From an uncultured Actinomycetota bacterium (GTDB lineage Bacteria > Actinomycetota > Actinomycetes > Mycobacteriales > Mycobacteriaceae): DNA of 64,000 nucleotides. The notes beneath the pieces were generated by a model, which searched no databases, was not told where the DNA came from, and saw only the letters and a program-made list of their open reading frames with translations. Position numbers and translations under genes: made by a program. The stretch covers positions 276,124 through 340,123 of the forward strand of contig CAWDEZ010000007.1 in NCBI GenBank assembly GCA_963801365.1, written 5' to 3'. Shown piece by piece: positions 7,581 to 62,313 of the stretch (within the stretch, counting starts at the first letter, position 1; every line of letters begins with the position of its first letter).

Positions 7581-9265
7581 CCTCGATTTTGCATGCCTGT
7601 AGGTTTGGGTTGAGGGTTGGCTGCGGATTAGCCTGTGTGATGGGTCTTTTCGGGATGTCGTATGTTTGATGGCCCCGTGTCGCGGGGCGGGGCGGGCTTT
7701 CCAGGGCCGTGGTGGGTTCGTGGTCGTTGGGGGCTGGTGGGTCCGTGGGTCAGGGGAAGGCGGCGCGGATGCGGTGCCAGGCGGTTGCAATCGCGATGGC
7801 CCAACGCCAGCTGGCATCGACGCGTAACCGGAGTTGGCGGGCGCCGCGGGTGATGCGGGCAGCCACGTGCAGCACCCGGTAGCGGAAGGCGGCGATCTCG
7901 CAGCGGGAGATCTCGGGGTGGGCGGTGAATCCGATGAGTTTGGCCCAGGCGACGAGATCGGTTGCAGCCAGGACAATTTCGAGCCAGGCAGTATTGGCGT
8001 GGAATCCGTGGCAGGGCAGGTTGGCCAGTCCGGTCGCCTTGGCTTCGCGGATGCGGTCCTCCACGCGGGCGTGCTGGCGGTGGCGCAGCTCGAGGCCGGC
8101 CAGCTGCCCAGCGATCAAACCGGGGGCTGTGTCGGTGATGAACGCGGTGACCCGCATGCCGTCGGCGTCGGTGAACCGCAGCTGCGCACCGGGGTGGGGG
8201 CGTTCCTTGCGCAGGATCAGCCGGGTGCCGGCAGGCCACGCCGACATGTCGACCAGGTCGGTGGCCTCGGCCACCCACGCCCCGTCGCGGATCTCACCGT
8301 CTGACTCGATCGCCGGGTACCAGGCCTGACCGCGGTTGAGGGTGTCGGCCGCGTCTTGCACCCGGGTGTCGACCGGGTGGCCCAACGAGAACCCGACCCG
8401 GTGAGCTCGGCAGGCCGTGGCGAACGCGTGGGTGGCCCCAGCGGCGTCGGACCGCACCAGCACCTTCGGCGCCGCGGGATCCCGGCCCGGACGCCAGTCC
8501 GGCGGCAGCGACGCCAACGCCTGCTCCAGGACCGTGACGTGGTCGGCCGCGGTGTTGCTGCCCGCGTTGCCGGCCCGCAGCAGCCCGGCCAGCGCCTCGC
8601 CCCCGGCGATCTCCGGACGATCCAAAAACGCCAACAACGGGTGATGCCCGAAGGTCTTCTTCCAGGTCGGCGCCGCGTTCTGCTTGTTGTCGGAGTGGTC
8701 GATGGTCAATGTGGCGTCGATGTCGATATGCAGCCACCCGCCGCGCTTGGGGGCCGCCCCGGCGGCCCACGCCGCCGCCCTGGCCGCCGCGCGGGCAGCG
8801 CGCACCCGCGGCAGATGTATCGCATCGACACGCTGGTCAACCAGCCGCCACATCGTGGTCGTCGACGCCTTCGCCCCGAAAACATGCTCGCGGTCCCCGC
8901 ACCGCTGCCCGACCCCGTCGATACAGTCCGCGCCGTCGGCCACCGCTGCCGCCAGATCCGCGAACACTGCACCCGGCGCATACACCCACGGACCCTGGTA
9001 CGTGTCGGCCAACGCGGCGGTCACCTGCGCCGACAACCCGGTCAAGTCGGCCAACTCGCGCAACAAGCCCATCCCCGCATGCGACACCACGCCGTGCCCG
9101 TCCGCCGACACTTTCACCCGCCGCGCCGACGCGATACTCTTCACCTGCAAAGTGCCTCTCCTGCTTGTGCCGACCGGACCTTAGACAAGTCGATCCTGCA
9201 CTGCGGGACAGGCGCTTTCGCGCATCAACACCCCATCACCGACGAACTCGCACGAAAAATTCAGG
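7581..9265 (-). mobile_element. IS1380-family element, copy 1
   Basis: Ends CCTCGATTTT / AAAAATTCAGG; TTAG duplicated at 7577-7580 and 9266-9269; 1685 bp. Confidence 0.95.
7750..9150 (-). CDS. IS1380 transposase
   Basis: 466 aa with DIDAT, VRSDAAG and RARVEDRIREAK DDE motifs; translation identical to copy 2. Confidence 0.95.
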   Translation of the reverse strand: MQVKSIASARRVKVSADGHGVVSHAGMGLLRELADLTGLSAQVTAALADTYQGPWVYAPGAVFADLAAAVADGADCIDGVGQRCGDREHVFGAKASTTTMWRLVDQRVDAIHLPRVRAARAAARAAAWAAGAAPKRGGWLHIDIDATLTIDHSDNKQNAAPTWKKTFGHHPLLAFLDRPEIAGGEALAGLLRAGNAGSNTAADHVTVLEQALASLPPDWRPGRDPAAPKVLVRSDAAGATHAFATACRAHRVGFSLGHPVDTRVQDAADTLNRGQAWYPAIESDGEIRDGAWVAEATDLVDMSAWPAGTRLILRKERPHPGAQLRFTDADGMRVTAFITDTAPGLIAGQLAGLELRHRQHARVEDRIREAKATGLANLPCHGFHANTAWLEIVLAATDLVAWAKLIGFTAHPEISRCEIAAFRYRVLHVAARITRGARQLRLRVDASWRWAIAIATAWHRIRAAFP

Positions 9266-29143: not shown

Positions 29144-29632
29144 CTACTGGCTCGGGATCGCGTCCAGCGCCTTGAGCTTGCCGTCGTCGCCGAGTTGGAA
29201 GCGCACCTGAGCGATCCCGGTCGGCCGGCCGGGGGCGTCGCCGCCCTGCTGCCACTGGTACTGCACCGTCACGGTGTTCTCGGCGGAGCTCAGCACTTCG
29301 GTGTACGGCTTCGGTTGCGGTGTCGCCGTGCCGATCGGCGTATTGCGGTCAAACAACAGCAAGTGCTGCGGCGCAGCTGAATCGGTGCCTGCGCTTACCT
29401 GTACCCAATACAGCCGGCAGTTCTTGGTGTGGCCGTCGCCCGCTTTCCGCCACGTCTCGCCGGATTCGGGAGGCAACTCGATGATTGCAGCCGTCACAGT
29501 GTCAGCGGCGGGTGCATCGGCGGGTGCGCACGTATCGGCCTGGGGCGGTGGTGCGCTCGATGGACGCCAGCCGCAACCTGCGGCGACAACTCCGAACATC
29601 AGCAGAATTGCCGTCACGCGGCGTAATCGCAT
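29144..29632 (-). CDS. lppP: LppP/LprE-family lipoprotein
   Basis: Lipobox VAAGC; HLLLFDRNTPIGTAT...VTVQYQW; synteny with Rv2330c. Confidence 0.85.
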   Translation of the reverse strand: MRLRRVTAILLMFGVVAAGCGWRPSSAPPPQADTCAPADAPAADTVTAAIIELPPESGETWRKAGDGHTKNCRLYWVQVSAGTDSAAPQHLLLFDRNTPIGTATPQPKPYTEVLSSAENTVTVQYQWQQGGDAPGRPTGIAQVRFQLGDDGKLKALDAIPSQ

Positions 29633-29752
29633 AGGCCCCACCTTAAGGCCGATTGAGAATCCGCGGGAAAAACCGTCACCGCCGGACGTGCTGGTCGCTC
29701 CTAGCAGGTGAACGCATCCCACAGGGGGTGCGACGACCTGAAGGAGAACACC

Positions 29753-30127
29753 ATGATCAAGATTGCTGCCGCCATGCTGGCCACCGCCGGCGCCGTCGTC
29801 GCCGGGGCGCTGGGCGCTGCGGCACCGGCCAGTGCCCAGGCCGACAGGTTCGTCGCCATCTCCTACTCGCCGGAGACCGGCTCCTACGGGTGGGGCAACA
29901 ACTACAACGACCTCGACGGGGCCAGAATCCGCTCGCTGAGCGAGTGCCAGAACTATGGCGGGAACCATTGTGTGTTCCTGGCCTGGTCGAAAAACGGGTG
30001 TGCTGCTCTGGCCGTCAACGGCAACAACTACTACGGCTGGTACGGCACGACTCGTTCGGACGCCGAGCAAGGTGCGCTGCAGCGCAACGGCGGCGGCCAC
30101 ATCCTCGTGTCGCAGTGCTCGACATAA
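29753..30127 (+). CDS. DUF4189 secreted protein
   Basis: Signal peptide; FVAISYS...C...NGCAALA...AEQGALQ; AAGGAG RBS. Confidence 0.85.
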   Translation: MIKIAAAMLATAGAVVAGALGAAAPASAQADRFVAISYSPETGSYGWGNNYNDLDGARIRSLSECQNYGGNHCVFLAWSKNGCAALAVNGNNYYGWYGTTRSDAEQGALQRNGGGHILVSQCST

Positions 30128-30136
30128 CCCCAGGCC

Positions 30137-30178
30137 CACGTCGGCCCGTCACCCTGGGCCCGGTGGCGGGCCGGCGTG
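30137..30178. terminator. GC-rich hairpin between convergent genes
   Basis: CACGTCGGCCCGTCACC pairs with GGTGGCGGGCCGGCGTG (17 bp, two G-U pairs). Confidence 0.65.
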
Positions 30179-30493
30179 CTACAGCCGGCCCGCTGCGAAG
30201 GTTGCTGCCTGGCTTGTCATTCCGGTGTGCACATACTGGACGTGCGGGCCCATGCTGACGCCTTCGGTGCAAATCGGATCGCCGGGCACACACAAGTCAA
30301 TAGTCTTTGGGAGGTACAGCGCGCCGATGCCGGGCAGCGCACCGGCCCACAATCGCCTCGAGAGTGAGCCTGCCGGCGACGGGTTTCCGAAAACGGCAAC
30401 CGCGGCGACATGATCAGCCACCTCGGGTGGCATCTGCGTGGTGACGACGTCGATTACGGCGGCACCTTGGGAGTACCCGCCGAGCACCATCCT
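30179..30493 (-). pseudogene. Cutinase, 5'-truncated
   Basis: [13 protein letters not shown] nucleophile motif, GNP and [10 protein letters not shown]; nothing cutinase-like upstream of 30494. Confidence 0.88.
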
Positions 30494-32675
30494 GTTCATC
30501 GACGAACTGCACACGCTGGTTGGCGCCGGTGCTGGCGAGAGCGCGATCGACGCCGCGTCGATCCTCAAGCCCAAGCTGGCGCGCGGCGAGCTGCAGACGA
30601 TTGGTGCCACCACGCTCGACGAATACCGCAAGTACATCGAAAAGGATCCCGCACTAGAGCGCCTCATCCAGCCGATTCAGATCGGCGAAATGACCGTCAA
30701 GAACACCATCGAAATGCTCAAGGGTATGCGCGACCGGGATGAAGCGCACCACCGGGTGTCCATCACAGACAGCGCGATCCGCGCGGCGGCGATGCTGGCC
30801 GACCGATACATAAACGACGGGTTCTTGCCGGGAAAGGCCATCGACTTGATCGATGAGGCCGGTGCCCAGATGCAGGTCCGCCGGATGAGCGCACCGCCAG
30901 ACCTCCGCGACTTCGACGATGCGATCGCCGATACCCGAAGTGAGAAGGAGGCCGCGATCGATGCGCAGGACTGGCAGAAGGCGGCCAACCTGCGCGACCG
31001 TGAAAAGCAACTGGTGGCCCAGCGCGGCGAGCGCGAAAAGCGATGGTACTCGGATGATCTCGGTGTCGTGGTCGAGGTGGACGAGGAATGTATTGTCGCG
31101 ATGATCGCCGACGTAACCAACGTTGCCGCGGACGAACTCCGCGCAGCGCTTCCATGGGCGATTCAGCCGGAAGCGTTGCCGGAAACAGACACCGACACCG
31201 AGCACCAATATGTAATGTTGAACGACAAGCCTGTCGATAACGCCGACGATGACATGCTTGGCACGGCAAACATCGTCCAGAGAATCGCATCGATTCTCCA
31301 GGAGTCACGGAATGCGGCGCCCTTTGTCATGGCTATCGACGGCGGATGGGGTGTTGGTAAGAGCACCCTGCTAACGCAGATCGAAGCGCGACTTCCTGGC
31401 GAGCCTGAGGTCGTCACGCTCCAATTCAACGCATGGACAGCCCAGGGCGAAAACGCACTTGAAAGCCTGATCAAATCAGTCCTCCTGAAACTCGACCCAA
31501 ATATCGTGCGGCGCTGGGCGCGCAAAATAGTAAAGCGGCGAGGCTTAGTCGGCCTGGCGCGGATCGGATTCGGTATCGCTGCAAGGTTTCTCGGCGTAAC
31601 ACGACTTGTCGACGCGATGTGGACCCAACTCGAAGTCGACGCACAGGCGCGCAACCAGCTCCGCGAGAACATCCAGGGAATGCTCTCCGAGTGGGTCAAG
31701 CAAGGCGGTAAAACAGCTGGCGGTCGAACGCTTGTCGTGTTCATCGATGACCTCGACCGCTGCCCAGACGATGTCGTCGTCCGCGTATGTGAAGCGGTGA
31801 AGCTCTACCTCGATGCACCGGGACTGATCTTTGTCATCGCCTGCGACCTTGCGGTGCTTGCTCGCGGTGTTGCTGGTCCCGCCCGAGGCGGTGTTGGGGA
31901 AGGGCGGACGTATCTAGAAAAGATCATCCAGGTTGCTTACCGGGTACCTGCGCCGGGTAGCGATGTCGTGCGCGGGCTGATCAAAGGCTACGGCAAACGG
32001 TCTGGCATATCACACCTGCTCGACCCCACTGTGGTCAACATACTTTCCGACGCGACGGGGCGGAATCCTCGGCGAATCAAACGGATCATCAACAGTTTCG
32101 TGTTGGAACATCACCTGGACCCAGCGTGGCGGCGCGCGCCCTTGAACAGCGCTCTGCTCATCACAGCAATCCTTCTCCAGCAACTTAACCCGTCGTTCTA
32201 TGCAGTAGTTGTCGACGAGAATTCTGGGGAAGATCCCATCGGGGATTTCCTGGACTACGCTACCGTCCGCGCTAAGGCGTCGAACCCGCCTCTTGGCGAT
32301 AATGCGTGGTGGTCGGCGGTACGTCGGACATTCAAACAACGCGGCCTACCGGCACCCAGTCCAGTTTCACTCCCGGTGGGCGAAGCTTTACCGCTCGAAG
32401 ACCTCGAAAAGTCGTTATCAGATGAATATCCAGCGCTTGACTACCCGCGCCTCGCGCGCAACGAAGCGTTCGTCGCACGGCTGCGACGTATCGGCGGACT
32501 GAGCACCCGCCAGGCACTTCGCGCGCATCTACTTAGCAGTCCGCTCGGCACCGAAAGGGTCGTTGAATCGGCTAGCTCTGTGGCCGGTATGGCTCCAGTG
32601 GATGAATTCGCATCGACAACCGACGTCGAGTCCCTTATGGACGAGGCGTCCTCATCACTCAGTCATCATCAATGA
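30438..32675 (+). CDS. Fusion of a ClpC-like fragment (NBD1 C-half, lid, UVR/M domain) to a KAP-family P-loop NTPase; 5' end deleted
   Basis: [14 protein letters not shown]...[18 protein letters not shown], then KAP Walker [13 protein letters not shown], Walker [10 protein letters not shown] and YLEKIIQ. Confidence 0.85.
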
Positions 32676-32740
32676 GCAACATGCGTCCTGAAGTCCACGG
32701 TGAACCGCAGGACGCTGCCGGTAGCACATGACTGCGACTG

Positions 32741-32777
32741 ACTTTCGAGACGCTCGTAACTCGTCTATTTCGAGACC
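32741..32777 (+). repeat. 37-bp dyad repeat, copy 1
   Basis: ACTTTCGAGACGCTCGTAACTCGTCTATTTCGAGACC; contains the TAG stop (32765-32767) of the minus-strand cyclase-ATPase gene. Confidence 0.8.
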
Positions 32778-35429
32778 GCGTTCAGCTCTGCTCGGGCCTG
32801 GTCGATTTGGTCGTATGCGTAGGTCGCCATCGCGGCGGTGGTCATCGTCTCGCCCTTGCGGGCAAGCGATTCGTAGGTCTGGTCGCCGAGCACGTTGCGG
32901 AGATGGGCGATCGCGGTGGTGATTTCGAGGTACGCCATTTCGGTGAGGGACTGAGCGCGAACCCGGCGATGGTGGCCGCCGGTTCATGGCGTCCGAGCCG
33001 GTCCAAGACCGTGGCGAGGCGAGCCAGTGGGTTGCGCATCGTGGTGGTGTCGCCCGCGTCGTGCATGTTTCGGATGGCCAGACTGATCTGGTCGAACGCG
33101 GACGCCATGTCGCCGTGCGTGGCCTCGAGGCGGGGCAGGTTGGATGCAATTGTGGATTCGATGAAGCGGTTGCCGCTGTCTTGAGCGATCACCAGGCCCC
33201 GGCGCAACGCGTCGAGTGCGCGGGCGGGATCTGTGTCGGCGTACGCGGTGCCGTAGGCGTAGAGCACGAAGGAAAGCACAAACGGGTTCCCCGTTGCCTC
33301 CGCAGCCTCCATCAGGCCATCCGCAACAACCCTGGCCTCCTGTCCCGAACCGGCGAACACAAGCCCCAGAACCAGACTCGCCCGGATCGTCACCGGGGCG
33401 TCGCGGCGGCGGCGCAGCTCGGCGCGGCACACCTCCAGCCACCGTTCGGGCTGCCCGACGAACAAGTAGGCACCTCCAAGCCCGCAGCCGTGCGGCAGCG
33501 CATCGCGGTTCCTGCCCAGAACGAACTGGCCGTCGTCGCAGTATCGAACGGCCTCCTCGACCCGCCCCGCCGTGTAGCACAACGACGCCATCAGGTACAA
33601 AGCGGCAAGCCGGGGATGGTCTATCGCACGGGCGGGCGCGATCAGCTCTTCAACCCAGGCGATCGGCTCATAGTTCTCGATCGCCGCGCCAAGAAACCCG
33701 GCATAGGTGGCGATCGCGGCAGCGGTGTCGAGGTCGCCGTGGTCGGCGGCCCAGCGGAATGCGGTGCGCAAGTTGGCCAGCTCGGTGCTGAACCACGTGT
33801 ACGACTCGCGCTGGCGGGGGCTGTTCCACATGGCCATGATGTCGGATTCGCGGCCAGCGAAGTGGCGGGCATGCGCGGCCCGAACCTCTGTGCGCCGCAC
33901 CGCTCGCCACGAGTTGCTCCTCGGCGAATTGGCGGATCGTCTCCAGCATTGAAAACCGGGTCCGCCCCGAAGACCGGTCCGCGACGAGTAGCGACTTGCG
34001 CACCAGAGCGTCCAGCAGATCGAGGACGGCGTACTCGTCGATGTCATCGAATCCGACTACGGCGCAGGCGCTCTGGAGGTCGAATCCGCCCGCGAACACC
34101 GAACACCTTGCCAGCAGAGACTTTTCGGCGTCATCGAGCAGGTCATAAGACCACGCCACCGCGTGACGCAGCGTGTGGTGGCGTTCCAGTCCGCGCCGCG
34201 AGCCGACCAGCAGCCGGAATCGGTGATCGAGACGATCACGGACCTCACTGGCCGTCATCGACGCCATCCGCGAGGCCGCCAACTCGATCGCCAGTGGTAT
34301 CCCGTCGAGGCGTCGGCAGATTTCCACCACCGCGCCCGCCTCATCAGCTGTGGCCATCGAGAAGCGCGGCGCCACACTCCGGGCGCGTTCGACGAACAGA
34401 TTGACTGCGGCAGAGTCGACTCCCCCGCTGAGATCCAGCGAGGGCACCGGCCACACTTGCTCGTCGGCGCCCCCCAGCCCTTCGCGGCTGGTGGCCACGA
34501 TTCGCACCGTCGCCGAGGCCGCCAGGATGGCTTCGATCAGATCGGCGGCGGCGTCGAGCACGTGCTCGCAGTTGTCGAACACCAACAGCCGGATTCTGCC
34601 CTCCAACGCGGCGGCCACACTCTCGCCCACGCTCTTGCCCGGCTGTTGAGTGATACCCAGCACCGCCGCCACCGCGTCGGGCACCGCCGCCGGATCGGTG
34701 ACCGCCGCCAGTTCGAAAACCCAGACGCCATCGGGAAATTCACCGGTCAGCCGTGCCGCGACTTCGGTGGCCAGGCGGGTCTTGCCGACCCCGCCGACAC
34801 CGGTCAAGGTGACCAGCCGATGTGTTCGCAGCGCGGCTTGCACCTCGACGACGTCGGACTCGCGCCCGATGAAGCTATTGGTTGCAGGCCGCAGGTTGCC
34901 CGAACTCGTATCGAGCGCACGCAGAGGCGGGAACTCGATGGCGCAGGCCGGGCGCCCGCAGCTGAAACACCGTGATCGGGTTCGGCACATCCCGCAGCCG
35001 TCGCCGCCCCAGATCGAGCAGATCAACACCGGTGAGCAGGACCGCCGTCGACTCGGCCACCAGAATCTGACCGCCATGCCCGGCGGCCATCACCCGCGCA
35101 GCACGGTTGAGCACCGCACCGAAGTAGTCCCCGTCGCGCAGTTCGGCCTCACCGGTTGCGATGCCCATCCGCACCGGCAACTCCAAGGCCCGCTGTGCGG
35201 CTACAGCTGCATCGACAGCAGATTTCGGCGACGAGAACGCGGCGCATACCCCGTCACCGGTGTGCTTGAACATGAAGCCGCCGTGCGTCTCGATCGCGGC
35301 GCGCAACACCTCGTCATGTGCGACGAGGGCCGCCCGCATCCCATCCGCGTCGGCCTCCCACCGACGGGTCGAACCCTCGACATCGGTGAACAGAAACGTC
35401 ACCACCCCCGAAGGAGCAGCCGCCGTCAC
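32765..35429 (-). pseudogene. Class III adenylate cyclase - NB-ARC/STAND ATPase - TPR-like protein, three frameshifts
   Basis: FLFTDVEGST, KHTGDG, LNRAAR; Walker A GVGGVGKT; ends DQARAELNAVSK*. Frame breaks near 34940, 33890 and 32945. Confidence 0.9.
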
Positions 35430-60403: not shown

Positions 60404-60422
60404 TTGATTTCAAGGTCTTAAA
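60395..60422. repeat. Perfect 28-bp palindrome
   Basis: TTTAAGACCTTGA TT TCAAGGTCTTAAA; 13-bp arms; contains the stop codon of the OLD-like gene. Confidence 0.9.
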
Positions 60423-62313
60423 CGTTTCCGTGATTGCCGCCCTTGGCCCAAGCGATGACTTCATCGACTACCGCTCGGATTGATGGAAGCTGGACTCCAG
60501 CGAGGTCGAGTGCGTGAACGACGCTGCGTACGCCGTCTGAGGTGGTGAGGGGTAGCTGGTAGTGCTCCTCGACATATGCCTTCCAGTCGACTGAATCCGA
60601 TGGACCTTTACCCAACGCTTGGCGGCATTCCTCCCGCATCTCAACCCATCCCGGAAATGTGGATGCTGTACTCGAAAAGCATTGTCGTATGCCGTCCGCC
60701 GGTAGCTCGAACAGCAGGTCATCCTCGCCAACTCCGAACCAGTCCGGCGGCGGTAGATGCCTGTCTTCAAACATCCTTTTCAGCTTCAAGACCTTCTTCT
60801 CCTCGCTCGTTCGCTTCGTGTTGGAGCGGTCAGCGATGGTCGAGGTGACAGTGTTGTCGGTCAGAATCCCCATCGGAAGGCCGAGTCGAATTGTGAACTC
60901 GCTATCGATTAACCCTTCGAGATTCTTCGTGCCGTGGATGGGGATCATCATTACTCCGGCAGCCTCCAGCGCAGCCCCGCTGTACTCGTCGAGTACCGCC
61001 ACGTCGAGCGGTCCCTCGACAAACAGGATCGCTCGGTGAAGGGACAGCACCGTGGCCGGATGCATGCCGACTTCGGTTGCGAGCCACTGCAGCAACGGGG
61101 TTGCGGAGTTCAGCAAGGTGCGGGCGTGAGTCGTTAGGTTGTCACTATCGCGTGTGACCTCAACCAGGGTGACATCGTCGCCCGAAGCTCGCAAGAACGC
61201 CTCATGGTGCGACGCCACGACGATATTGAATCCGGACTCAACCATCCGTTGGCACCAGCGCAGGATGCTGGCCACCGCTGAGGGGTGAAGGTGCGCTTCA
61301 GGCTCATCGATAAAGAGAACATCCCCACTGAATGACCGCTTGTCAGGTCGTATTAGGTCCGATATGTCCGCAAGGGGATTTGCTATGGCATGCATGGCGA
61401 TTTGCGTGGACGCGGCGATCCAACGCGCTGCACCGCGACCGACATCATGGACGGAGCGTGCGTACTGCTCGGTGCCTCGCTCCTCATAGGCCACCTTCAC
61501 CGACGGTACCTCTCCCAACTTCGTCGGAACCTCCAATTGTGCCCGGATGGAGCCGTCAAGGAAATCGGGCAGAAGTAGGGTCGCCAACTCTTCGACCAGG
61601 TGGATCGTTGCGTGGACTATCGGTTTAACGCGCCACAAACTTCCGTCATCAGAGTCGACTTTTTCGAGCCAGCGGTTATCTACAGTCGATTCTCCGAACA
61701 GTTTGTTGATCCCGGCGGTGACCGTATCGCTGAGGTCGGCGAATTCCCAGTCCAGGAACAACGGACGTGGCCGGGGTCCGTCGAAACAGCATTGCTCGTT
61801 GAAATCGTCGCTCAGTTCAACATCGACTTTGACGTACTCGTATTTTAAGTTCTCGTTGATTGCCAGCTCGAAGTACGGTTGTGGGTCCGCAAAACACAAC
61901 CCCGATTTGACGGAATCGAACCCAAATGAAACTTGACCGAACGGCAGCACGTCGACTTGAATAGATTCTACCTCGCTATTCAACCTAATAAATTCACCCT
62001 CGATATTCAGATAAAAGTATTTCTCGCGGGTACGTGGTTCGAGTACGGCGTCATCGAAGAGAAGACCCGATTCCAAATCCGCGTAGATTGCTCCAACCGG
62101 AAGCGATGTGTCATCGCCTCGTACCGCGCGAGCGAGATCCTCCGCCCCAGGGTAGCCCCGCATAGTTTCGGGAGCGAGAATCCCGTAGATGGCTTCAAGC
62201 ACGTTGGTCTTGCCAACGTTGTTCTTCCCGAAAAGGACAGTAAGCGGCCCGATTTCGATTTCCAGGTAATTCACTGAGCGATACCGCATGATGAGCGCCT
62301 TGCGTAGTCGCAT
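60418..62313 (-). CDS. OLD-family ABC-ATPase - TOPRIM nuclease
   Basis: Walker A GKNNVGKT, Walker B FIDEPEAHLHP, H-loop VASHH, TOPRIM FVEGPLD and LTDN. Confidence 0.85.
   Translation of the reverse strand: MRLRKALIMRYRSVNYLEIEIGPLTVLFGKNNVGKTNVLEAIYGILAPETMRGYPGAEDLARAVRGDDTSLPVGAIYADLESGLLFDDAVLEPRTREKYFYLNIEGEFIRLNSEVESIQVDVLPFGQVSFGFDSVKSGLCFADPQPYFELAINENLKYEYVKVDVELSDDFNEQCCFDGPRPRPLFLDWEFADLSDTVTAGINKLFGESTVDNRWLEKVDSDDGSLWRVKPIVHATIHLVEELATLLLPDFLDGSIRAQLEVPTKLGEVPSVKVAYEERGTEQYARSVHDVGRGAARWIAASTQIAMHAIANPLADISDLIRPDKRSFSGDVLFIDEPEAHLHPSAVASILRWCQRMVESGFNIVVASHHEAFLRASGDDVTLVEVTRDSDNLTTHARTLLNSATPLLQWLATEVGMHPATVLSLHRAILFVEGPLDVAVLDEYSGAALEAAGVMMIPIHGTKNLEGLIDSEFTIRLGLPMGILTDNTVTSTIADRSNTKRTSEEKKVLKLKRMFEDRHLPPPDWFGVGEDDLLFELPADGIRQCFSSTASTFPGWVEMREECRQALGKGPSDSVDWKAYVEEHYQLPLTTSDGVRSVVHALDLAGVQLPSIRAVVDEVIAWAKGGNHGNV

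Follow-up and report, generated by a model that had tools for sequence, protein, structure and literature searches.

ClpC1 is essential in mycobacteria and a leading drug target, and soil actinomycetes produce several compounds that bind its N-terminal domain, among them cyclomarin, ecumicin, rufomycin/ilamycin and lassomycin. KAP NTPases, in turn, often carry transmembrane helices between Walker A and Walker B. Cyclomarin is contacted by F2, F80, and E89 of ClpC1 (PMC10030653), and ClpC's N-terminal domain along with its 412–471 linker provides the binding surfaces for MecA, McsB, and the phage SPO1 protein Gp53 (PMC6873191). An anti-phage role has been validated for KAP NTPases that carry unknown fused regions, and loci involved in defence are marked by small serine recombinases (PMC13552941). 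Here, we analyse a stretch of 64,000 nucleotides (the window) from an uncultured actinobacterium of the Mycobacteriaceae (GCA_963801365.1, contig CAWDEZ010000007.1), in which an open reading frame (ORF) at 30438–32675 on the plus strand joins part of a ClpC1-like module to a KAP NTPase. The locus is a 5′-truncated relic of a single-gene accessory protein, whose full-length relatives form a family of ClpC-KAP fusions with a putative role as bait-type sensors.

The ORF encodes 745 amino acids (aa) and has no internal stop. Pfam assigns an AAA fragment to aa 15–59, AAA_lid_9 to aa 87–187 (E 4e-28), and UVR to aa 163–193, followed by KAP_NTPase at aa 278–555 (E 4e-34; 118.6 bits with a cut-off of 20; profile positions 3–287 of 293). 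In a whole-genome comparison, the two resident ClpC1 genes align with ORF aa 18–224, and residues 18–215 are 80% identical to aa 283–480 of the genome's own ClpC1. This ClpC1-like remnant (30489..31109, plus strand) comprises D1 from Walker B onward with sensor 1, the Arg finger, the lid, and the M/UVR coiled coil. It is connected by a variable linker (31110..31208, plus strand), defined by the junction alignment across lineages and modelled with low confidence, to the KAP-family P-loop NTPase core (31209..32102, plus strand), which begins at YxLLNDxP and is delineated by Pfam, PADLOC, and invariant columns. Walker A of the KAP part (GWGVGKS at aa 303; 31344–31364, plus strand) and Walker B (DDLDRC at aa 437; 31746–31763, plus strand) are each invariant across 79 relatives, and the KAP half keeps all 45 of the 45 columns that are invariant among 79 family members. 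The PADLOC models QatA, PifA, and PDC-S20 match the ORF at ~1e-32 (PifA, E 6e-32), covering the NTPase core only (positions 5–262 of 720 in the PifA profile and 195–286 of 646 in that of QatA), and no QueC/TatD-like partner set is found among the neighbours in the window and at nine homologous loci. An earlier note, made from the letters of this DNA alone, had described a ClpC1-like part fused in frame to a complete KAP NTPase with intact motifs; both the Pfam assignment and the ClpC1 alignment bear this out. The same note had pointed to substitutions at functional sites. Both are present: The ORF reads ALERLIQ where ClpC1 has ALERRFQ, a degenerate Arg finger, and replaces DRFLPDKAID of ClpC1 with a different ten-residue segment (sequence not shown). 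They are, however, not peculiar to the window copy, as intact relatives have the same or similar substitutions.

A search with the KAP half retrieves 745 relatives, and a ClpC-like N-terminal part is present in 63 of the best 120. Most fusions are 950–1040 aa long and are built as Clp_N, AAA, AAA_lid_9, UVR, and KAP_NTPase, so that the full-length homologues whose recovery the earlier note had proposed are at hand. Named hosts of full-length fusions are Mycolicibacterium vulneris, two Kribbella, two Streptomyces (one of the genes being plasmid-borne), Actinocrispum, two Amycolatopsis, Arthrobacter, and Sinomonas; many further fusions come from metagenomes (P0005–P0012, P0020, P0022, and P0112 are examples of the family). 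They occur in nine species genomes from five orders, and the family, seen so far in Actinomycetota only, thereby spans at least five actinobacterial orders and is not confined to the strain of the window. After clustering of the library at 50% identity, ~14 representatives cover both modules in one alignment. In every fusion, the cross-lineage alignment shows ClpC1 homology ending just after "TGIPV" (~aa 497), followed by a variable linker and then YxLLNDxP; none of the fusions has D2 or the ClpP-docking loop. A subfamily of ~820 aa begins at D1 and has no N-terminal domain. The sister clade in the KAP tree is devoid of the ClpC part, its members being stand-alone or carrying a C-terminal CheY-like receiver or ABM domain. 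Since this clade carries other modules or none, the KAP core and its helical tail represent the constant unit, to which a variable module is added. We regard the reality of the family as practically certain.

The ClpC module of the fusions combines lost catalytic motifs with retained surfaces. When 64 non-redundant fusions are aligned with genuine ClpC1 (six sequences, each perfect at every motif), the pore-loop Tyr is lost in 62 fusions and kept in two. Walker A is intact in 11/64, Walker B (DE) in 30/64, and the Arg finger in 23/64, while Walker A, Walker B, and Arg finger are all intact in just three of the 64. The residues invariant in ClpC1 are kept in a fraction of 0.75 of the fusions in the N-terminal domain, 0.73 in the lid, and 0.70 in the M-domain, reaching up to 0.85 at aa 451–465; the corresponding value for the pore-loop segment is 0.28. 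Moreover, the cyclomarin-contact residues are well represented among the 47 fusions that have an N-terminal domain (F2 in 35/47, F80 in 40/47, E89 in 38/47). The window copy and the ~820-aa subfamily, having no N-terminal domain, have none of the three. In pairwise comparisons within the mycobacterial clade, the ratio of nonsynonymous to synonymous rates (dN/dS) is 0.18–0.28 for the ClpC part, 0.11–0.19 for KAP, and 0.12–0.21 for the C-terminal domain. All parts of the fusion are hence under purifying selection, including the ClpC segment, for which the earlier note had suggested such a check. Judged by these patterns, the ClpC module is a pseudo-unfoldase, which has mostly lost the pore-loop Tyr and the ATP-site motifs and has kept the partner-binding surfaces.

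The two halves of the fusion have separate histories. When genuine ClpC1 is taken from nine fusion-carrying genomes, the identity matrix places the ClpC part of each fusion closest to the ClpC1 of its own lineage, with 82% identity versus 70–75% to other lineages in M. vulneris, 84% versus 72–80% in Streptomyces, and 76% versus 68–75% in Actinocrispum. At columns that are diagnostic for ClpC1 lineages, mycobacterial states occupy 7/7 sites in the M. vulneris fusion and Micrococcales states 7/15 in the Arthrobacter fusion, compared with 0–2 in fusions of other lineages; the diagnostic sites are scattered from aa 48 to aa 469. In a maximum-likelihood tree rooted with ClpB, fusion modules fall within the ClpC1 clades of mycobacteria (support 99), Pseudonocardiales (95), and Streptomyces (88), and the approximately unbiased (AU) test rejects a single clade of all fusion ClpC parts (delta lnL 95.5, p-AU 0.0027). 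Long-branch attraction would act in the opposite direction to this nesting. Synonymous divergence (dS) of the fusion ClpC part is lowest to the clpC1 of the host lineage, and its values of 0.4–0.7 indicate that the renewal events are old. In contrast, the KAP parts of all fusions form one clade, with moderate support (SH 84). In an IQ-TREE phylogeny of 79 KAP rows, the label "ClpC" requires 2 changes versus 26.8 after shuffling, and monophyly is not rejected (p-AU 0.20). The KAP clade of mycobacteria also includes P0008 and P0010, whose ClpC part is only 46% identical to ClpC1 and lacks the mycobacterial states, whereas their sisters reach 75–85%. As the KAP halves fit a single origin and the ClpC halves nest in host-lineage ClpC1, we infer that the resident clpC1 served to renew the ClpC module; the simplest account is one fusion event, after which this module was replaced or converted from that gene at the base of several lineages.

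The AlphaFold2 (AF2) model of the KAP half is confident overall (predicted local distance difference test score (pLDDT) 85.7, predicted template modelling score (pTM) 0.80) and consists of a P-loop core, an inserted hairpin, an all-helical C-terminal domain, and a disordered tail. The hairpin (aa 354–398; 31497..31631, plus strand; model helices 130–174) lies between the two Walker motifs, at a site where KAP proteins often have transmembrane helices; it is amphipathic, contains several Arg residues, is modelled at pLDDT 72–79, and does not represent a clear membrane span. The helical C-terminal domain (32103..32537, plus strand; pLDDT >90, delineated by AF2, Foldseek, and dN/dS) continues from the KAP core to ~aa 700 and is conserved family-wide, whether or not a ClpC module is present. 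The C-terminus that the earlier note had left without assignment thus turns out to be a confidently predicted helical domain joined to the KAP core. Of the acidic tail (32538..32675 including the stop codon, plus strand; pLDDT <50), the final ~35 aa are disordered. The best Foldseek match is RdrA (PDB 8hr8 and 8hrb; E 7e-6, TM-score 0.34–0.42, 13% identity), followed by ORC/Cdc6 and the RFC clamp loaders, with low TM-scores throughout, and a PDB sequence search with the KAP profile gives zero matches.

The window copy itself is very probably beheaded. Its first 16 codons (30438..30485, plus strand) are homologous to neither ClpC nor any family member, and ClpC1 homology starts only from aa 17–18. 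Read on the opposite strand, these codons are the serine-motif region of a cutinase (a 12-residue stretch, not shown), and thus the GTG start of the ORF is fortuitous. The cutinase is itself a 3′ fragment (30179..30490, minus strand; Pfam Cutinase E 4e-26, positions 79–172 of 173), which is kept from the GYSQGA serine motif onward and has lost its 5′ part, namely ~78 profile positions and the signal peptide. At base level, the junction (30486..30490) reads as the cutinase codons M-V-L on the minus strand and as ClpC "TILFIDELH" on the plus strand. The ClpC homology begins with "ILFIDELH" at nt ~30489, which corresponds to about residue 297–299 of the full-length relative P0005, so the window copy is without ~296 N-terminal residues: the N-terminal domain, Walker A, the pore loop, and half of D1, along with the promoter. 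A single deletion seems to have clipped two head-to-head genes, the cutinase and the fusion, together with the DNA between them. The loss of the 5′ end and the possible relic status put forward in the earlier note are confirmed by the antisense start and the position at which homology sets in. As neither the N-terminal domain nor the first half of D1 is left, any bait function is lost at this locus.

At the deletion junction, repeats, promoters, and terminators do not exceed chance, and no ends of insertion sequences (IS) are found. When the KAP part is searched against 200 congeneric genomes, identity is 30% at best and a match of any kind at E ≤ 1e-10 occurs in only nine; the gene is rare and accessory in the genus of the window. 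Because no close KAP relative exists among these genomes, there is no intact orthologue from which the deletion could be reconstructed. Searches of the flanks in 30 relatives show a conserved upstream acyl-CoA oxidase, a nearest genome that is only ~80% DNA-identical, and a downstream flank belonging to a multi-copy cyclase-STAND family; owing to the distance of the nearest genome and the multi-copy flank, synteny could neither date nor size the deletion. In the closest sampled relative (G012:C39:969–2221, on a contig of 2.4 kb), the end of the acyl-CoA oxidase is directly followed by a cutinase homologue, and the LppP gene that lies between the two in the window is absent. Recent gene conversion in the window copy was considered and rejected, as the remnant shows 79–80% nt identity to both resident clpC1 genes and no high-identity tract. 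These two full-length genes, C6:584889–587438 and C15:15430–17973, encode proteins that are 93% identical. The C15 gene, whose surroundings include a UPF0236 transposase, a regulator of the SpoIIE/STAS type, and a Usp gene, looks like an accessory second copy; with an assembly contamination of 2.9%, a foreign origin of this copy is possible.

Counts of changes per branch, obtained for the window copy and the intact P0005 with M. vulneris as outgroup, differ between the two halves. In the ClpC remnant, the window branch carries 17 nonsynonymous and 17 synonymous changes, compared with 6 and 22 in the ClpC part on the P0005 branch (Fisher p 0.03), whereas the KAP counts are 5/19 for the window and 7/25 for P0005. 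The ClpC remnant is thus drifting under relaxed constraint, and the KAP half would be either still useful or too recently orphaned for decay to show. One alternative is that the window copy is alive and yields a shortened lid-M-KAP protein with some activity from the fortuitous GTG or an internal start, which would be compatible with the explanation given for the family as a whole. The wholly open 2.2-kb frame, the complete set of family-invariant KAP residues, a KAP ratio as low as that of the intact relative, and the natural occurrence of variants lacking the N-terminal domain fit this alternative. However, an open frame is weak evidence, since frames decay slowly at 63% GC; the native promoter and start are missing, the DNA upstream is the antisense of another gene and contains no promoter-like site that we could find, and the remnant, which starts midway through the D1 large subdomain and is thus unlikely to fold, shows the relaxed constraint just described. 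We therefore consider a live copy improbable.

Across the fusion loci, no neighbouring gene is conserved and the gene travels alone. About half of the loci are in mobile or island settings. The M. vulneris locus contains a Prim-Pol, an excisionase-like helix-turn-helix protein, a TIR protein, DUF6602, and a resolvase, and a resolvase also adjoins P0005. P0013, cut at its 3′ end by a transposase, also lies with IS110 and an integrase and is bordered on both sides by cyclase-STAND genes, as in the window; P0045 is associated with a RepSA-Xis-Int element, and a Streptomyces fusion is located on a plasmid. In Kribbella sp. NPDC056861 (L164, 9213–16064), the fusion gene interrupts a core housekeeping cluster, with dnaX on one side and ybaB-recR on the other. 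The small serine recombinase was dropped as a general neighbour, as it was seen at two loci only. A further candidate link, between the subfamily without N-terminal domain and contractile injection systems, was likewise given up: P0037 (821 aa, D1-M-KAP; metagenome contig L165, 26–7777) directly follows genes for sheath, tube (gp19), baseplate, Pvc16_N, and WHD proteins of such a system, an arrangement seen once and absent at the locus of a second member.

How might such a protein work? We propose that the ClpC1 look-alike would serve as bait for something that targets ClpC1. The trigger could be an adaptor-like or inhibitor protein of a phage, of the kind of SPO1 Gp53, or a ClpC1-binding cyclic peptide. 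Its binding would free the KAP NTPase, whose closest solved fold is that of the ring ATPase RdrA, for NTP hydrolysis or oligomerisation, and the activated NTPase would then stop infection or growth. The family is perhaps slightly better than evenly placed to be a conflict or defence protein, and the statement as a whole, a single-gene sensor with the bait mechanism included, appears evenly balanced. For the ClpC module to act as bait, the chance may fall just short of even. The full picture of a bacterial integrated-decoy immune receptor, in which an NTPase switch would carry a dead ClpC1 as bait for ClpC1-targeting molecules of phage or antibiotic origin and recurrent recombination with the resident clpC1 would keep this bait matched to the host, remains tentative and is rather unlikely to hold in all its parts. 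The earlier note had already suggested a dead ClpC mimic as sensor; the decay of motifs, the conserved surfaces, and the tracking of host ClpC1 fit this suggestion at the level of the family, but the window copy, without N-terminal domain and half of D1, cannot work in this way.

Several observations weigh against the proposed sensor. About half of the loci sit among ordinary metabolic genes, and of ~13 loci with flanks, only 2 have the small serine recombinase next to the fusion gene. As the ~820-aa subfamily has no N-terminal domain, this domain cannot be a universal bait surface. Neither the AF2 model nor the Foldseek search reveals a recognised effector fold or domain, which makes the output step a guess. 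Independent fusions at the same domain boundary, although less parsimonious, are conceivable, support for the KAP clade being moderate (SH 84). Further, the renewal appears as tracking at the level of lineages and not as ongoing mimicry at the level of strains, and in the window the KAP half still looks constrained, which is awkward for a dead pseudogene unless the deletion is recent.

Among the other explanations for the family, the best surviving one holds that the protein is an antibiotic sensor or sponge, in which the mimic soaks up or senses ClpC1-binding cyclic peptides as ClpC2 does and the KAP NTPase is the response module. ClpC2, a copy of the ClpC1 N-terminal domain, is a proven sponge and sensor (PMC10030653); the cyclomarin contacts are kept in 35–40 of the 47 fusions with an N-terminal domain, the family is restricted to soil actinobacteria, and several of its loci are in ordinary chromosomal settings. 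Yet an entire subfamily lacks the N-terminal domain and nevertheless has D1, lid, and M-domain, and a sponge needs neither the ~350 extra residues of D1 and M-domain nor an NTPase. In addition, the frequent location on mobile elements or plasmids and the validated role of KAP proteins (PMC13552941) favour conflict with phages, and we consider this explanation unlikely.

An even less probable explanation is a ClpC1-associated regulator, whose dead D1 and M-domain would co-assemble or dock with ClpC1 hexamers or the resting state and whose KAP NTPase, carried to the protease in this way, would serve proteostasis or stress responses instead of acting on invaders. The M-domain and lid are the best-conserved parts, tracking of the host-lineage ClpC1 would also be expected of a partner that has to fit ClpC1, and the CheY-like receivers in the KAP sister clade are ordinary signalling inputs. 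In contrast to a core regulator, however, the gene is mobile and at times found on plasmids, its distribution is patchy, with no close KAP relative in the 200 genomes of the same genus (30% identity at best), and it has no conserved clp neighbourhood; moreover, shared derived residues along the whole module and the lower dS are explained more simply by recombination than by co-adaptation. Finally, a chance in-frame join or an assembly chimera of this genome as the origin of the ClpC-KAP junction is refuted by the same junction residue in dozens of independent genomes and metagenomes, even though the locus does hold one accidental join, namely the 5′ deletion junction with the cutinase.

The surroundings of the relic were inspected as well. 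Upstream, and outside the system, lies a gene for an LppP/LprE-family lipoprotein (29144..30139, minus strand; Pfam Lipoprotein_21, E 1e-22). On the 3′ side of the relic, a STAND/TPR gene occupies 32676–35400 in two overlapping frames (NB-ARC at 33668–35077 and TPR at 32842–34047); it is one of a multi-copy family, whose other members are a 96% identical gene at C7:352818–355463 and more copies on C15, C18, and C26. The same window contains an integrase-family gene (26–2506), a DDE transposase (7750–9150), and an AAA_15/AAA_21 ATPase of the OLD/AbiEii-like type (60418–62313). The integrase and transposase near its start, the cyclase-STAND operons, and the OLD-like ATPase agree with a region that is a mosaic and partly mobile.

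The family is also under-annotated. Its members are labelled "P-loop NTPase fold protein", "UvrB/UvrC motif-containing protein", or "Clp ATP-binding subunit", some are split to a KAP-only call, and a family definition is missing in current annotation. On the plasmid of Streptomyces sp. NBC_00829 (L017, 4363–7371), for instance, only a 478-aa "KAP family NTPase" (P0027) is annotated, and the uninterrupted frame of 1002 codons includes a ClpC-like part upstream of it; P0028 and P0029, which group with full-length fusions in the KAP tree, may be similar to this under-called protein. In P0045, the M-domain segment is duplicated ahead of the KAP part. Other recruitments of pieces of the ClpC front half are represented by P0171, P0135, and P0141, which comprise a papain-like protease with Clp_N-D1-lid and no D2, a 1064-aa protein of eight Clp_N repeats, and a tandem of two ClpC front halves. 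The remaining fusions of the ClpC front half among the representative matches are mostly true ClpC with inteins or N-terminal extensions, and the locus search from P0037 returned mostly genuine clpC1 genes.

If the proposal is true, the inert but faithful front half of ClpC1 would be a natural reporter of ClpC1 attackers. It could lead to Clp-hijacking proteins of mycobacteriophages and streptomycete phages as well as to the binding modes of ClpC1-directed natural products. It would also provide a test case for decoy sensing in bacteria, with a bait that can be compared with its original, and the different histories of the two halves allow us to ask how a decoy keeps pace with its model. The window copy matters solely as a pointer to this family. 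In agreement with the earlier note, which did not recognise the architecture as described, we found, within the library searched, no paper describing a ClpC-KAP fusion and none containing both "KAP NTPase" and "ClpC"; the fusion is not mentioned in the Aravind-group paper on conflict systems or in the 2026 STAND survey. The ClpC-KAP fusion family is thus apparently undescribed, with its kin among single-polypeptide KAP conflict proteins and partial homologues of ClpC1.

In comparison with known systems, the nearest counterparts are EF_KAP, three metagenomic KAP anti-phage proteins (PLoS Biol 2026, PMC13552941), and PifA of the F plasmid, with which the family shares the lone gene, the KAP core with its Walker motifs, and a variable fused region. 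Like the validated KAP proteins, it is also found on mobile DNA, twice beside a small serine recombinase. In those proteins, however, the fused region is C-terminal and unassigned, whereas here it is N-terminal and an identifiable copy of a housekeeping protein. The family further differs from them and from PifA in having no clear transmembrane helices, in its restriction to Actinomycetota, and in matching only the first ~260 of the 720 PifA profile positions. RdrA of RADAR, a ring-forming defence ATPase, is a match in structure only and acts with the deaminase RdrB, a partner that has no equivalent in the family. With ClpC1 and class I Hsp100 proteins, many members share 60–85% identity over N-terminal domain, D1, and M-domain, the M-domain following the D1 lid in both; in contrast to ClpC1, the family has neither D2 nor the ClpP-binding loop, has lost the pore-loop Tyr in 62/64 fusions, and shows mostly degenerate ATP-site motifs. 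ClpC2, the partial ClpC1 homologue of mycobacteria (PMC10030653), resembles the family as a non-proteolytic partial copy beside the essential ClpC1, and the ligand contacts of its N-terminal domain are conserved in most full-length members of the family. However, ClpC2 copies the N-terminal domain only and adds a DNA-binding region for autoregulation, whereas in the family the copied part reaches on through D1 and the M-domain and has an NTPase attached; unlike ClpC2, the copy in the window has no N-terminal domain. The plant integrated-decoy NLRs (nucleotide-binding leucine-rich repeat receptors) and the bacterial STAND/Avs proteins follow the same logic of an NTPase switch with a fused sensor, which in the plant receptors is a copy of a host protein targeted by pathogens. 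The family differs from both in using a KAP instead of a STAND NTPase and in having no effector domain. To our knowledge, an integrated decoy has not yet been demonstrated in bacteria, and we know of no immune receptor for which a bait periodically renewed from its host counterpart has been described. Such a renewal, with the resident clpC1 as source of the ClpC module, would be the unusual, and testable, feature that sets this family apart from its relatives.

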